Assembly: GCA_044226015.1 (NCBI GenBank)
Contig: JBGAHS010000001.1
Coordinates: 1-64,000 of the forward strand
Direction: 5' to 3'
DNA: 64,000 nucleotides
Source: Candidatus Obscuribacteraceae bacterium
Lineage (GTDB): Bacteria > Cyanobacteriota > Vampirovibrionia > Obscuribacterales > Obscuribacteraceae
Below, one piece after another: positions 21,001 through 30,000 of the stretch; positions within the stretch are counted from its first letter, which is position 1, and each line of letters begins with the position of its first letter. The position numbers were made by a program.

Positions 21001-24000
21001 CAAGCCTGGGCATTGTGTGATGAGAATGGAGAGCCGATTGATCTTGTTGGAAATCCAGTCTCGCAGCCGTCGGACCTTGTGTTTATTAGTGATGCTGAGC
21101 TGCTCAAAGTCGCAGCCCATAAGCCTTGCGGAGACCACTTCGACACAGTCGAGGATTATTTCGTAGACGGTTTGAAGGCATTCCGTCAGGGGGCTAAGCG
21201 TCGTGCTGAGTTGGGCAAAATAAATCCGGCGCTTTATCAAATGGTAAAAGCCTTAGATCAGATGGGAATTAATCGATGCTACTCACCAATTAAGACTTTT
21301 ACTGGAATGATTCGCTCATCGACCGGAGCGCTAGTTGAGAACAATATCGCAAATCAAAAGGAGGTAAGCAGGTTTGAATCAGGCTTTGCCGTAAAAAAGT
21401 GAACTGTGCAATTATGCAGTCGGTTTACGCTAACTCGCATAAATGGCTTTATTCCATTAAATCGCTTCGTAAAGTTGCGAATTCTAAATAGCTTTGGATA
21501 GATTCAGCAGGGGGCTGGCGTAAAAAAAGAGACGCCAATTATGACTCAAGAAACTTCAAACGAAAAAGACAGCAAAAAGAAAACGTCAGACGACGACGTT
21601 GAGCACCGTGATGTTGATGCTGGTCAGGAAGCGTCAAACCGCCTTGCTGCTGATGCCTGGTCTCGTCCTTCGGATGCAGCGAACAAAAGTTCGCCAAGCA
21701 CTGCTGAGCGCGTGGAGCAAAACAAGCCTTTTGCTGCCAAGGAAGATGCTGCTGTCCGCGAAAATGTTGAAAAGCTTGCTGCTTTGAGTGCGAAGTCGAA
21801 TCCTTCGGATTTGAGTCAATTGCGCAAGTTCGAAAGCTTCATTCCAAACATCAATAATCTCATCAAAATATCTAATGAGCAGAATGGCGAAAAGACAACT
21901 GAGCTCGATAGAGAAAGATTTAGCAAAGTTGTTGGCGTTATCGAAAAGTATAAGGGCAATCAGAACGCCTTAGACGAAGCCATTAAAAAAGATGATAAAG
22001 TCGAGATCGAAAAGCTTCTGAAAGAACAAGCTGAGATCAAAAAGCAGATGGAGTCAAAAGAGTTTAGAGCTGAACTCGACAAAACTGTTGAGGATTTTAG
22101 CCGTGGTTTTAACGCGTTGCGTGGTGGATTGGGCACCACATATGATGGCTTGCTGAAGAGCTTGGTCGAGTTTGGCAGAAAAATGCCATTAGAACAGTTG
22201 CCGCAAGATTTACCAACAGGTTTGAAGGGTTTTGCTGTCAGCAATGAACAGTTCAAAAGCATGGTTGAGCAAGGACAGTTCAAACTTCCTGAGAGAAAAC
22301 TCGCAGCAACAGAGCTGCCCACTGATAAGGATTTTCAAGAAATCGGTCGCCTCTTGCGCTTTACTGATGCGGCTCAAACTGAAGTTAATCGTGGCAAGTT
22401 AGAGCAACAGTGGAATCTCGCGAAAGATCGTTTGGGTCAGCTTGATGCAAGTGGCGAGAAAGCAAAGAACTGGTTTCCTGAAGACGTCAGTAAATTGACT
22501 GACGAACAAATAGAAAAGCGCCTGGCAGCGGCGACTCCGTGGATTCAAAAAGGACTGGAGGTTCAACGTTATGCTGAACTTCATCATCGTCTCAATAAAA
22601 TGATCAGCGACCAATTTAACTGGCCGAGCTGGTTGGGCGGAATTCCATCGAAATGGGATTCAAGCGCACTGGAGACGAATAAGGACCTTGTTTCAGTAAA
22701 CAAGGATGCGAAAACGGGCAAGGTCGACATCACGATCAAACTACCTGATTCGCTTGATAGAAACGACAGTAATACTGAAACCATTCGCCGAATGGATGAT
22801 TGGTTGGCGAAATATAAAGGGCCCGTTGACCAGGTGCTTGGTCAAATTGACAAAGCCAAAGGCGAAAACAACATAGTTTATTGGGGCGACATCAAGACTG
22901 ATGTTCGTGTCGATAAAGATGGAAACATGGTCGAGAAAGGTTGGAAAGACTCCGCCGGACGCCAGGTGTTTCAGGAGGCTGATGGACGCAAGTTCAGATT
23001 TACTGAAGATGGCACCAAGCAATCCGTTCCAAGCAGCGAAAAATTGACTGAGCAGGAATTTCGCCTCATCAATGGAAAGACTGTTTGGGTCGAAAAAGGT
23101 GAAGAAATCAACGACGTAAACGTGATGAGCTTCCGCACCGATGCTAAGGAAGTCAAAGGACCAAATGGCGAGCCTCTAATTGAGATCAAACAAGTTCAAA
23201 CAATGGAATATGCTCACTTGCTTTCTTACCAGGGAATCGGATGGGTAAGCGAAGTGAAAACCATGGGTGGTGACATCAAAGCTGAGAAACTGAAAGCTGA
23301 TGCCACCATTGCTGCTGAGAAGGGTGCCGTTGGTGGACGTAGAGAAGGCAAAGCAGGAGATTACCTGGTAACACTTTCGGATGGCAGACAGCAATTTGTT
23401 GATGCTACCAGTTTCGAAAAACTGTATCGTGCGAAGGATGGTAAGCCTGGCGAATTTGAAGAGAAGCCGAAAACCTACAAGCCTGATGATTGGGTTGTAG
23501 TTTATAGAACTGACAGCGGTATGCCGCAGCCCACATTAATGCAAGCTAAAGATGTTCCATCATTTTGCTCATCTCAAGCAAAATGGCACTACGGATCCAA
23601 GATAGTCACAGCAGCTGTTGATGCTGCGATGTTGATTAGCGGAGTAGCTGAAGTTAGAGCTGCCATGGTCGGAGTGGAAGCTGCTGCTGGCACAGCTGCT
23701 AAGCTCACAACCATGCAGGTTTTAGGCAAGGCTCTTTTGACCAATCAAGGCGCTTTTGGCGCGTTTCATGCGGGGCTCGGTGCAACCGGATTCCTCGGAC
23801 AGGGCATTGAAAACATTGGACCAGTCGGTAAAACCTTTATGCAAGTGCGTGCATTTGCGATGATAGCTGACCTCGGTTACACTGCAATTGGAAGACCATT
23901 TACACCGGCGCCATTCGCACCGACTGCTGAACAGATAGCTGGTACTGGTTCATTTTCCAGAGCATTGTTGAACTTCAATCGTGCGTTTAACGAAGTTCCA

Positions 24001-27000: not shown

Positions 27001-30000
27001 GTTGTCGCCAAGCCTGGACAAGGTGGCTTGAGTGATGATCAGGTTTCAACATTACTTGCGACTGCTCTTCAACGCGAGTTGAGGAATACTCCAGCGCCAG
27101 GTGCAAAAGATTTTGCTGAACGTGAGAAGTTGCAGCTTGATCTGGTAAATACGCTTTCAGAGCCACGCTTCAGAAACAAGAATGCTCTTCCAATATTGGA
27201 AGCAATTGCAAGTGGAACTCCTAAATTCACCGTTAACCGCGGTGATGATGGAAACGTCAACAAAGTTCAATACTCTAATGGAACGTCGAGAGAGCTTGTT
27301 ACTCGTAATGGCGTGCCTGTGAGATACGTGTTCCGCGATAGTGCGGGCAAGGAAGATGGATGGACGCCCGATGCTAGCAAGCCTAACACCTGGTATCGCG
27401 AATCTGACAAGGAAAGGAAAGCCCCCTGGACTGGCACCATCAGATTTGATAATAAGACAGGCGATTATATTACCGAGAGTGGTAATTACAAGTCAGTGCT
27501 CAAACCAAGTGGTGGCACTGTTGAGACCGTTGATGGCAAGGTTTCAAAAGTTACCTACCCCGATGGCAGCAACCGCTTATTCGAGCCACCTGGTGAGAAT
27601 TTTGCAAAGGTAACCTTTACCGAAAAAGATGGTAAGACGAAGCAAGTTCTCAATCGTGAGGGCAATACCAATACTTTCTTTGCCGCAGAAGATTCAGCAA
27701 AGAAGACACCTCTGCAAATGCAAAGTCAGGTCGATGCGAACACTGGCGATTACGTTACTGTAGTTAATGGTGTCAGAACTGTCGAGCGGATGGATGGATC
27801 TAAATCGCAGATCAAAGATGGCGTAATGTCTGACACCAGAGCAACATCGAGCATTGCTTATAGCACGAGCTTGGATAGTGTTCGCGCTAAAGCTCAGGCT
27901 CTCATCGCTCAAATGGCTGACCGTAGTGATTCTCTTCGTCTGCAAGCCGTAGCGCCAGATGGCTTTAATGCCGAGCGTTCCGCAAAGGCAATTGCCGATG
28001 AATTGATCAATCCTAATGCTAGCTCTGAGAGAGTTGGTCGTGCAATCGCACTGTCTGGAAAACTCCCAGCCATTGCTGACGACAATGACCCACGGCGCGC
28101 ACCGCTGGCGATGGCAGCACGCGATGGGCATGAACTCGTCCGTCTCATGGCTGCTAGAGAATTGGCTAGAAGCAGCAATGAGGAAGATCGCAAATTGGCT
28201 TATAGCGTTCTTTCGGGGCTCGAAAAGCAAGGCTCAAGGCAGGGATACGTTGCCGAGGCACATGAATTGATTGGACAGATCATGGCTGACACCAAGGTAT
28301 CAGCAACAGATAAGCAAGCCCTCGATGCAGCTCGTCAAACAGCAACATCTCTTGATGGTGCCACTTACAGAGCAGATCAAAGAACCTCAGACCTTTCATC
28401 AAATCTCGACTACCAGGATGCTTACGAACGCGCTGTTATAGATTTGAAAGAAAACGCGTTGAAATCTCGAAATCTCGCACAATATCAAGGCAGCGACAAC
28501 TGGTTTGCTAAGAGTGATAAGTACAAACTGCTCGACATCGACAAACTAGTTGAGGGCGTTAAGCAAGCTGTGCATGATGCCTACCCTGGTCCTATCGCGT
28601 GGGTATTCACGAGTCAAGCTACAATCGACCGCAAGTGCAAAGAAGCTGCCGATGGAGTTCGCGAAAATCAGCGAAGACAGTTCGCAGCACTAGGTGAGGA
28701 GGCAAAGCTTGCTGGAGACGCTGGAAAACAGGCTCGCGAAGCGCTTGCTTCAATCGTTATCTCGCAAGGTCAACCTTTTGCTGAGGGATATAGAAACTGG
28801 GCGATCGTAGAAGCGGCCGTTATGATGCAGAAATGCATTAAGGATGGTCATCCAGGCGCTCGCGATATGGTCTGGGCAGTGCAAGCTGCGTTGGTTGAAG
28901 AACCATCTCTAAATCCTGTCGCTCGTTCTTACCTGATTAGTGCTATCGACTATGCTAAAGAGCGTGGCATCCTTGACTCTAAGCAAGCCAGCATCACTGT
29001 GGCGGCTGGGTTGGAAAGCGAGTTCCAGGGAATGCCACCGAAGACCAACGCGAAGGCTTATGCTGACAGTATTTCAAATCAGAAGTATGCAATTGCGCTA
29101 ATAAGCAACTGGGGTAATGTAGAAGCTACGCCTGTTTTGGATGCGATGGCTAAGCATCATCCGGATGCTGAAGTAAGAAGAGCTGCTTCTGATGCGATCA
29201 CCTACTTCAAGCTTCGTGAAGAGGCGTCAAAGCTTAGAGGACGCAGGTAGTAAATTGATTTTGAAGTAAGTGGGCAGGTAGCTTTCTCAGGTGCTGAAGC
29301 CAACTAGACTTGGGTGAATTCGCTTGCCGTGCTATTTCCAGCCGCTGTGCAAGATTTCGAATGCCGCCGCGCGTTATTCTCAATGCAAAAGAGTGCCGCG
29401 GTATATTTTGCGGCACTCTTTGCTAGGGTTCACTTCTATCGTTGGTCGGAAACTGATCGGAATACGTTTTATGCAGGACGCAGCGAGGCGTTCATAAAGG
29501 TGACAATCTTTTCTACGTTGGCTTTGTTTCGTCCACCATCGACTGCAAGGGTGTAGCCGAATAGAAGGTCCTCAATGGCACTTAATCTAGGTTGGCTACT
29601 GACCGTTAACTGAGTGCGATTTGAAGCAATCTCTGTGACTTGCACTTTTACTTCCTGCGAACTCGCCTCTTTTCTTTTAGGAGCCAGGCAAGTGATTGTT
29701 CCTGATTGTTCGTCGGCATGAGTCAGGCTAGAACCAGCGATTGAAAGTGCGCCACCAAGAGCGAGTTCATACGATTCTTTAGCGCTCAAAGGAAGCTCGA
29801 TAATGCGTGCCTGATATGGAGTCTCTTGTTTATATCGAAAGACCCAGGCAAGAAGCATTGAGAATGGAGCCATTATGGTTGTGAAATATACAACAAAAAC
29901 CAGATTCGCCAATGCTCCCTGTAATGGTCCCCATCCATAGAGATGAACATTGAATGCGGTGAGAAGCGCATAGACGAACATTGTGCTTCCAGCCGCGTAT

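Follow-up and report, generated by a model that had tools for sequence, protein, structure and literature searches.

The open reading frame at 21541..29250 of the analysed window, a 64-kb stretch of a genome from the order Obscuribacterales, encodes a giant protein whose charged start holds a short helical motif shared with many other proteins. What does this leader do and, if it is an export tag, which machine would read it? The order comprises non-photosynthetic cyanobacterial relatives that are widespread, uncultured and little studied. The following features were located in the window:

21541..29250, + strand: giant carrier g04404 (g04859 in the initial annotation), 2569 amino acids, without a hydrophobic signal peptide (ORF call)
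21541..21630, + strand: g04404 leader, residues 1-30, charged, of low complexity and variable in length (from sequence)
21631..21660, + strand: g04404 helix element ASNRLAADAW, residues 31-40, the top profile score of the genome
23458..23910, + strand: g04404 Gly/Ala-rich helical domain, about residues 640-790, the most widely conserved part
26200..26409, + strand: g04404 HEAT repeats, residues 1554-1623 (Pfam HEAT_2, E 1e-10)
53960..55672, + strand: second carrier, 570 amino acids, with helix SSTQLRNEAD at 54023-54052 (score 15.5)
9254..10726, + strand: weak candidate carrier, a putative glucoamylase (Pfam Glycoamylase), with helix SRQLFSKEAY at 9323-9352 (score 11.0, near the threshold)

The initial annotation had singled out g04404 as a carrier, and the helix indeed follows its charged leader. 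Orthologs with 49-66% identity are present in five of seven genomes of the same genus, and 29 of 87 genomes of the family contain partial homologs. Among six orthologs compared, the leader was variable in length and poorly conserved, while the helix was preserved in all five of five (ASKRLSSEVW, AGEKLSAEGW, AAEKMLDEGW, ASERLFQDSW, AASLMAQEAW). When g04404 was excluded from training it still scored 25.4, against a maximum of 14.5 among 1000 shuffles of its own leader. The Gly/Ala-rich domain is common to giant proteins across the family and forms long helices in the structure model (pLDDT 64-75); a fold search with it gave no informative match (best Z 6.0), and it may have a membrane-inserting role. 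The second carrier has no family match in Pfam or NCBIfam and is a paralog of carrier g01825.

A loose two-part profile

The motif had been written as A-S-x-x-L-x-x-[ED]-A-[FWY]. This holds as a loose profile and not as a literal pattern, which occurs at four sites in the 2.3 M residues of the genome, two of them N-terminal. The leader is bipartite. After a charged, disordered N-terminus comes a helix, ASxRLxx[ED]A[WYF], at residues 15-30, which is often followed, about 35 residues on, by a beta-strand-like element LPxLxL/I(V)D.

Signal peptides were assigned solely by a hydropathy rule. In a set of 5716 newly called genes, a one-block profile picked out 109 of the 3904 leaders that lack a signal peptide, against 19.5 expected and in line with the 101 counted initially; a shared leader is confirmed. 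The controls were lower, at 11 of 3147 for internal windows, 17 of 2909 for C-termini and 11 of 1668 for proteins with a signal peptide. Two features outside the training agreed with this. The helix started at residues 15-29 in 67 of the 109 matches (background 27.6%, p 1.6e-13), and Asp occupied residue 3 in 25 of 91 (background 7.3%). A two-element model found the tag on 171 of 3630 proteins without a signal peptide. The second element, noted earlier as LPxLxI, was real and had been understated, being present in 53 of the 171 carriers, where the median spacing is 35 residues. In hold-outs split by contig, with N-terminal paralogs removed, this model scored 29 of 1262 and 26 of 1264 proteins against 6.3 expected; at a strict threshold the counts were 20 and 14 against 1.3, with 0/868 and 4/886 internal windows. 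In the reverse test, signal-peptide proteins scored near background (15 of 1575). That housekeeping proteins lack the motif was borne out, with none among 170 core proteins compared with 171 of 3460 others (p 5e-4).

In principle such a profile could also come from a selection by eye of helices rich in Ala, Ser, Leu and Glu within disordered N-termini, which iterative training would then amplify. An unbiased gapped-triplet scan was topped by kinase and response-regulator paralogs, and after clustering the motif ranked low (A......E.W, 17 against 5.6, last of the best 80 rows), in agreement with the earlier statement that it does not emerge from unbiased k-mer counts. One-block hold-outs gave 13-22 against 6.3 expected, and decoy seeds, compared for this model only, reached 6-15 and once 21 through drift to a P-loop, so the shuffle nulls are anti-conservative; the same applies to per-sequence shuffle tests, which 25 of 116 VirB4 homologs passed at p<0.05. 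A first PSSM with crude pseudocounts was unconvincing (hold-outs 15 and 14, decoys 4-12), and a first two-block training that drifted one way (26/1262 against 10/1264) was replaced by the later model. Some carriers are evident false positives, for example an aminotransferase, and random windows of other genera showed no enrichment (below). Several observations speak against an artefact: the positional clustering, Asp at residue 3, the hold-outs, the lack of the tag on core proteins and, in three unrelated families, conservation of specific columns. Ortholog conservation largely refutes this explanation, which we regard as extremely improbable.

The leader had no match in Pfam, NCBIfam or the Atlas (searched with the first 100 residues), nor did a Pfam scan of one 70-residue stretch find any. 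A profile of 24 bipartite leaders searched against 1.84 billion representatives had no power, its six matches all being training proteins or near-identical copies. LPxhxh was not enriched in carriers past residue 110, and a variant second element of the LELTNP[YF] type, seen in clostripain-like homologs, was not enriched genome-wide (9 against 9).

Cargo and homologous families

Pfam confirmed the carrier classes proposed in the initial annotation, namely M4 proteases, sedolisins, GH25 and phage-tail lysozymes, 5'-nucleotidase and giants with HEAT, FHA or RHS parts. Its count of five carriers among 17 giants was roughly matched, as the threshold is passed by four of the 21 proteins of at least 1500 amino acids that have no hydrophobic N-region. 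In 84 of the 171 carriers, picked for Pfam scanning by score and not at random, 46 had no family, and hydrolases made up 24 of the other 38, five of them peptidoglycan-acting. In a set defined by domain (n=22), all proteins lacked a signal peptide and seven scored at least 6 (background 9.7%, p 0.004). The roughly 150 carriers are scattered and mostly independently transcribed. Local clustering was not significant (25/135, random mean 18, maximum 35), and nothing convincing emerged as a DNA word common to their upstream regions. Toxin-immunity pairing is not the rule, since carriers show no excess of coupled downstream genes (17.8% against 24.7%).

Within diverged ortholog leaders the tag forms a conserved island. 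Among 28 M28 homologs with a charged leader, the helix Leu is kept in 27, and the Leu and Pro of the second element in 21 and 23, against mostly 4-15 in adjacent columns; none has a hydrophobic N-terminus. Conversely, 21 of the 23 other M28 homologs have one, and none of the 23 reaches the tag threshold. In this family the tag alternates with a hydrophobic signal anchor. The leader-bearing clade was seen in its own genus only, and a phylum-wide M28 search, in a sample that held no Obscuribacterales genome, found nothing. None of the 17 clostripain-like homologs has a signal peptide; with members of their own family left out, 13 of them pass at p<0.05.

The M4 carriers, which we take to be protealysin-like, have a short PPY-type propeptide, and the leader precedes the propeptide in eight of 13 M4 paralogs and is absent in five. 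Protealysin is described as intracellular, without secretion into the medium, and vesicle delivery has been proposed for a relative, in the parts available of PMC9505478. The earlier description of these enzymes as normally secreted therefore fails for the M4 carriers; modular gain of the leader among the paralogs is the better argument.

Chaperone-binding regions typically combine a helix and a strand within a disordered arm. The leader resembles them, and the genome holds a single small protein, g03838, whose fold is presumably CesT/YbjN-like. The leader might then be a cytoplasmic handle bound by a chaperone or protease (for holding, as a degron or as a removable pro-region), with the hydrolases inactive until vesicle release or lysis, a reading that also fits the protealysin reports. 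We consider it rather unlikely: the tag and a hydrophobic export anchor replace one another in the M28 family, some carriers are peptidoglycan hydrolases, which have no cytoplasmic substrate, and the proteases retain their own propeptides behind the tag.

Four observations favour the initial proposal of a candidate export signal: the kinds of cargo, the lack of the tag on core proteins, its island conservation and the M28 anchor swap. On these grounds we infer that the leader is quite probably a Sec-independent export tag of some kind.

The doubt raised earlier, that the motif may be strongest in its own genus, was justified by random windows of four genomes, which were not enriched (1/183, 3/182, 1/93 and 1/87, with 0.8, 2.3, 0.2 and 0.4 expected), the T4SS described below being present in all four; lineage-specific proteins amounted to only 11 of 87 in the random windows of the same genus. 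Homologous families in other genera nonetheless carry degenerate forms.

Candidate export machines

The initial annotation named no machine; a T4SS is added here. The most likely candidate is a chromosomal VirB2/3/4/6/8-VirD4 operon that is core to Obscuribacterales. A VirD4-like gene was found in 31 of 32 family genomes and both other genomes of the order, and a second VirB4, making two VirB4 loci, in all 32 and both others. In 116 genomes from other orders, searches with VirD4 and with VirB4 gave no strong match. The VirB4/VirB3/VirB8/VirD4 block was preserved in 10 of 10 genomes inspected. The VirB4 ATPase on contig C10 matched AAA_10; NCBIfam VirB4/TraC matches of the C1 copy and of one ortholog of the C10 copy fell below the cut-offs. 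VirD4 is a coupling protein with a membrane anchor (T4SS-DNA_transf, TraG-D_C and TrwB_AAD_bind matches). The structure model of VirB8 matched IcmL/DotI/TraM/CagV/VirB8, with ARC6 ranking alongside, and the VirB6-like protein had TrbL/VirB6 look-alike clusters at 0.90-0.92 from Bacillota, Actinomycetota and Saccharimonadota. VirB3 and a VirB2-like pilin are putative, from size, hydrophobicity and position, and had no Pfam or NCBIfam match. A 230-residue domain of one carrier recurs at the C-terminus of the VirB6-like protein encoded in the operon (E 2e-15).

Obscuribacterales are presumed diderm. Of the outer-membrane core VirB7/9/10, a search for CagX/VirB9 found nothing and VirB10/TrbI-like matches were below the cut-off and outside the operon, which leaves passage of the outer membrane without explanation. 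The core of the order also includes a Replic_Relax relaxase-like gene (30/32 and 2/2), which often adjoins VirD4, so this T4SS may move DNA; a dedicated effector T4SS would have no associated relaxase.

Markers of other machines were searched with controls that were detected. The T3SS export gate FlhA/SctV (PF00771) was not found, nor were VipB, PF05943 and PF04984 of the T6SS and contractile sheaths, for which a tube-protein search was uninformative. For a T7SS, WXG100 (PF06013) was not found, and PF01580, searched for an EssC/EccC ATPase, matched just a VirB4-like gene and one weak site. The tag might be read by a machine that is missing or escaped identification, considering the genome completeness of 92.2%, the uninformative tube-protein search and the lack of an outer-membrane T4SS core; with each of these markers absent while controls were detected, this is highly unlikely.

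Tad systems are core as well (32/32 and 2/2 order genomes), with three RcpC loci in this genome, and TadE/TadG-like pilin genes flank the second VirB4 locus. Myxobacterial Kil systems provide a Tad-like parallel in contact-dependent killing, and one giant carrier has an FHA domain. It is nevertheless decidedly unlikely that a Tad-like apparatus, or a hybrid of Tad pilin and VirB4, reads the export tag in place of the VirD4 operon: Tad is likewise present in further families of the class (f3, f7-f11), where one sampled Tad-bearing genome had no carriers among 124 (low power), and the sole homology found between cargo and machine involves the VirB6-like protein.

Judged from sequence, the chances that the VirD4 operon's T4SS reads the tag are about even. 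A cytoplasmic receptor would recognise both tag elements and pass the substrate to the coupling ATPase, a Zn-finger/TPR-like DUF2225 protein being a possible adaptor. The machine would be a monoderm-type T4SS of VirB2-like pilin, VirB3, VirB4, extended VirB6, VirB8 and VirD4, through which cell-wall hydrolases, proteases and membrane-inserting giants would avoid the Sec route of the producing cell and act either on a cell in contact or on the surroundings, in predation or host-dependent feeding. Tentatively, and with somewhat less than even confidence, Obscuribacterales may have domesticated a monoderm-type core T4SS that, in this genus, serves a Legionella-scale repertoire (150-300 proteins) chosen by an N-terminal two-part tag.

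Implications and known systems

Through the tag, a large effector-like repertoire, for the most part unannotated, becomes accessible from sequence, and a predatory or host-dependent life is hinted at. Being short and portable, the tag would also serve as a reporter-ready tool for studying such systems. In the literature covered, which took in few subscription papers and no supplements, neither the leader nor this lineage-wide chromosomal T4SS was found described. If the link between them is true, T4SS substrate recognition gains an N-terminal mode, of a kind not found described in that literature, and a minimal monoderm-type machine exports folded-enzyme cargo of up to 5 kaa. The predatory or host-dependent lifestyle would become testable and could guide cultivation, in co-culture with prey. 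If the T4SS was domesticated, Obscuribacterales would be contact-dependent predators or epibionts, and the tag a sequence rule for effector prediction in the order.

The T6SS cargo motifs RIX, WHIX and MIX are folded domains. These and the T3SS signal with its chaperone-binding domain share with the leader an N-terminal tag on unrelated cargo, a disordered start and helix and strand elements, but neither FlhA/SctV nor VipB was found here. The chromosomal, lineage-wide T4SS of Patescibacteria and the 89K T4SS of Streptococcus suis have a VirB3/4/6/8/VirD4 set with a VirB2-like pilin, to which the operon corresponds in VirB4, VirB6, VirB8 and VirD4 and, putatively, in VirB3 and the pilin. Obscuribacterales differ in genomes of 3-9 Mb, a presumed diderm envelope and two VirB4 loci. 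They also retain a relaxase-like gene; most Patescibacteria lack one, according to the part available of PMC12102498. The S. suis system secretes a subtilisin-like protease (PMC12857230, in part), and no substrate tag appears in the available portions of either description. The T4SS of Vampirovibrio chlorellavorus, in the same class, has been proposed to carry hydrolases into prey but is T-type and partly plasmid-borne; the accessible text mentions no signal (PMC4451040).

T4SS effector signals offer the likeness of a shared tag on unrelated cargo in a genome with VirD4 and VirB4, and of hydrolase cargo without a Sec signal. They include the basic C-tail of Agrobacterium, the BID domain plus tail of Bartonella, the XVIPCD of Xanthomonas and the bipartite signal of Helicobacter CagA. 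The XVIPCD, at about 120 residues, forms a C-terminal domain, whereas the leader's conserved element is short and two-part and lies at the N-terminus. Known signals are mostly C-terminal, which counts against a T4SS, although CagA also requires its N-terminal region (both from the part available of PMC10025392). The carriers do show a mild excess of basic C-tails: at least two K/R in the last three residues were present in 20 of 90, a minority, compared with 335 of 3459 other proteins (p 5e-4).

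The N-terminal tag and its carriers

The window covers the first 64 kb of contig C11 in the studied Obscuribacteraceae genome (G000; 8.19 Mb, completeness 92.2%). For one of the genome's proteins, the three nearest named relatives belong to Candidatus Obscuribacterales. Genes were called with an own hexamer model, which yielded 5716 genes, and signal peptides were called from hydropathy alone. The HEAT-repeat giant encoded at 21541-29250 (+) is a protein of 2569 aa in which ASNRLAADAW occupies residues 31–40, preceded by a charged leader. The initial annotation had described this helix as A-S-x-x-L-x-x-[ED]-A-[FWY] and proposed it as a candidate export signal. 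The literal pattern occurs four times in the 2.33 M residues of the whole genome, twice near an N-terminus, and is so rare that the motif claim depends on a profile. An unbiased gapped-triplet scan did not rank the motif high.

With a one-block profile, 109 of 3904 leaders were positive (19.5 expected), compared with 11 positives among 3147 internal windows and 17 among 2909 C-termini. Hold-outs gave 13–22 matches against 6.3 expected, and decoy seeds 6–15 with one at 21; with decoys that high, the hold-outs taken alone would be weak support. Stronger evidence comes from two properties outside the profile: the helix starts at residues 15–29 in 67 of the 109 matches (27.6% expected, p 1.6e-13), and Asp is found at residue 3 in 25 of 91 matches (7.3% overall).

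The helix is often followed by a strand-like element, LPxLxL/I(V)D. Seventeen of the 170 N-terminal LPxhxh sites had an upstream helix score of at least 8, against 6.6 in matched controls. A model of the helix with an optional strand found 29 of 1262 and 26 of 1264 in hold-outs (6.3 expected) and, at a strict threshold, 20 and 14 (1.3 expected), with 0 of 868 and 4 of 886 internal windows; a previous two-block training run had drifted in one direction, and the decoy seeds cover the one-block profile only. Over the whole genome the two-part model marked 171 of 3630 proteins that lack a signal peptide; the counts were 15 of 1575 among proteins that have one and 18 of 2630 among internal windows, background rates from which about 150 of the 171 carriers are real. 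The second element is present in 53 of the 171, its median spacing being 35 residues. The motif as first observed was borne out and extended.

Core proteins, here those that share 50% identity or more with a protein from another genus or order among the sampled genomes, do not carry the tag (0 of 170, p 5e-4). Carriers are less often downstream operon genes (4.4% vs 23.8%) and show no clustering along the genome. A Pfam scan of 84 of the 171 carriers, picked by score, left 46 without a family; hydrolases made up 24 of the other 38, and a few of those scanned were evident false positives. The hydrolases include three M4, two sedolisin, four trypsin-like and two clostripain-like proteins, as well as M28, S9, esterases, EEP, a macro domain, 5'-nucleotidase and glucoamylase. 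Five of the 24 hydrolases act on peptidoglycan (a glucosaminidase-amidase, a glucosaminidase, GH25, a phage-tail lysozyme and DPBB). ChaN/Tiki, haem peroxidase, LysM, RHS, FHA and HEAT proteins are likewise among the carriers. The M4 carriers resemble the protealysin prototype. Protealysin is intracellular according to passages of PMC9505478, which weakens the earlier use of M4 proteases as an example of normally secreted enzymes.

Conservation and range of the tag

The tag is a conserved, position-restricted, two-part N-terminal feature of non-core hydrolases and giants. Five orthologs of the giant from the same genus (49–66% identity) all retain the helix, with leaders variable in length and sequence. 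The Leu of the helix is conserved in 27 of 28 M28 homologs; in the second element, 21 of them retain the Leu and 23 the Pro, with adjacent columns mostly at 4–15. Of the remaining 23 M28 homologs, several of which are named Obscuribacterales, 21 have a hydrophobic N-terminus and none reaches the threshold; when own-family members were excluded from training, 16 of 28 vs 0 of 23 were at threshold. Three longer M28 homologs combine a leader with a hydrophobic domain and fall below the threshold. In this one family a hydrophobic export anchor takes the place of the tag in part of the members.

No signal peptide is present in any of the 17 clostripain-like homologs, 13 of which score at p<0.05. 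Six of 13 M4 paralogs have a leader of 30–60 residues preceding a PPY-type propeptide (three above threshold, the others by eye); in two more the leader is accompanied by a hydrophobic domain some 200 residues long, and five have no leader. The 22 proteins defined by this hydrophobic domain are all without a signal peptide, and seven score at least 6 against a background of 9.7%; the true carrier class is therefore probably larger than the threshold set.

Consensus and large repertoire are best documented in the own genus, the only one in which the tagged M28 clade was found. Random windows showed no enrichment in three other genera (1 of 183, 3 of 182 and 1 of 93) or in a same-genus genome (1 of 87 proteins, 11 of the 87 being lineage-specific), and windows of two other orders held no carriers (0 of 124 and 0 of 112). 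Degenerate helices occur at p<0.05 in other genera in 10 of 24 clostripain-like proteins, many of them belonging to a single genus, and 10 of 18 long M4 proteins, a level that 25 of 116 control VirB4 homologs also pass. In clostripain-like homologs of other genera (L270-L286) a variant second element resembling LELTNP[YF] follows the helix; it is not enriched genome-wide in G000.

A candidate secretion machine

Searches for FlhA/SctV, sheath, VipB and WXG100 gave no match in the 92.2%-complete genome, control searches being positive, and an EssC-like FtsK was not found. Type IV pilus ATPases and Tad loci are present, together with two T4SS-like loci:

C10:63035-90121, first locus (L006, L007), chromosomal, core to Obscuribacterales
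C1:182285-201171, second locus (L008), chromosomal, core, with flanking TadE/TadG-like pilin genes and paired VirB6-like genes

The C10 locus encodes, in order, signal-peptide proteins (four conserved ones head the operon), a small pilin-like gene (82–97% conserved), an extended VirB6, DUF2225, VirB3-like, VirB4, VirB8, VirD4 and Replic_Relax. The predicted fold supports VirB8, and monoderm-type look-alikes in the Atlas support VirB6. The T4SS is order-wide in Obscuribacterales: VirD4 is found in 31 of 32 genomes of the family and both other same-order genomes (63–80% identity), with weak low-complexity matches only in 6 of 116 genomes of other orders, and the second VirB4 in 32 of 32 and 2 of 2 against 0 of 116.

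The export-signal interpretation stood in part: the two-part tag and its exchange for a hydrophobic anchor are observed, and the route would run through a receptor. A receptor or adaptor may bind the tag and hand the cargo to VirD4, from where it would be exported Sec-independently onto a prey or host cell. We consider it likely that the leader is an export tag; that this T4SS serves it is, in our judgement, evenly balanced. A domain of 230 residues is found both in one carrier and in the variable C-terminus of the VirB6 encoded in the operon, and basic C-tails are commoner in carriers. Against the T4SS count a relaxase-like gene that is core as well, a negative VirB9 search of the genome, weak and scattered VirB10-like matches, and Tad, which is core to the same extent. 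Known T4SS signals are moreover mostly C-terminal, as far as stated in sections of the review PMC10025392. Passages of PMC4451040 propose that a T-type T4SS carries hydrolases in Vampirovibrio, and the Patescibacteria and S. suis T4SS, as treated in parts of PMC12857230 and PMC12102498, are comparison systems. Searches of the literature, at the level of main texts, brought up no account of the leader or the Obscuribacterales T4SS.

Two adjacent in-frame stop codons divide the second VirB4 of this genome (C1:183271-185976) into 699 + 193 aa, which reflects either a recent disruption or an error of assembly; most relatives have an open frame of about 890–970 aa. At C10:71034-82065 an insertion (an RHS fragment and unrelated genes) lies inside the operon between two DUF2225 copies; the relatives compared have a single DUF2225 and no insertion. 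Further VirB6-like paralogs are dispersed over C1, C4, C6 and C7. A 983-aa membrane protein (C1:952017-954968), which adjoins giant carriers, has at its C-terminus a copy of the T4SS pilin-like product (55% identity). A signal-peptide family (C9:73102-74073, C10:34332-35309 and about 10 paralogs) has weak TrbI/VirB10 similarity below the cut-off, and one member is located between two carriers. A single small protein (C9:437002-437460) has what we take to be a resemblance to CesT/YbjN-type chaperones; no T3SS marker was found in the genome.

Other giants and genes of the window

A separate class of giants has Sec-type N-termini with a common RPG/LDLS-like start. It is found genome-wide (e.g. 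C12:174215-250769), comprises 34 of the 63 proteins of at least 2000 aa and about 5% of the genome, and its longest member has 14,391 aa. At 32448-36618 of the window, neighbouring PLD-like and DUF2252 proteins, both without a signal peptide, have the sequence W-L-x-[ED]-N-V-x-H-P-F-x-N-G-T-G in common near their N-termini, which may mark a further N-terminal domain of effector-like type. Counted by a simple motif, Hanks-type kinases number at least 109 in the genome, five of them in the window.
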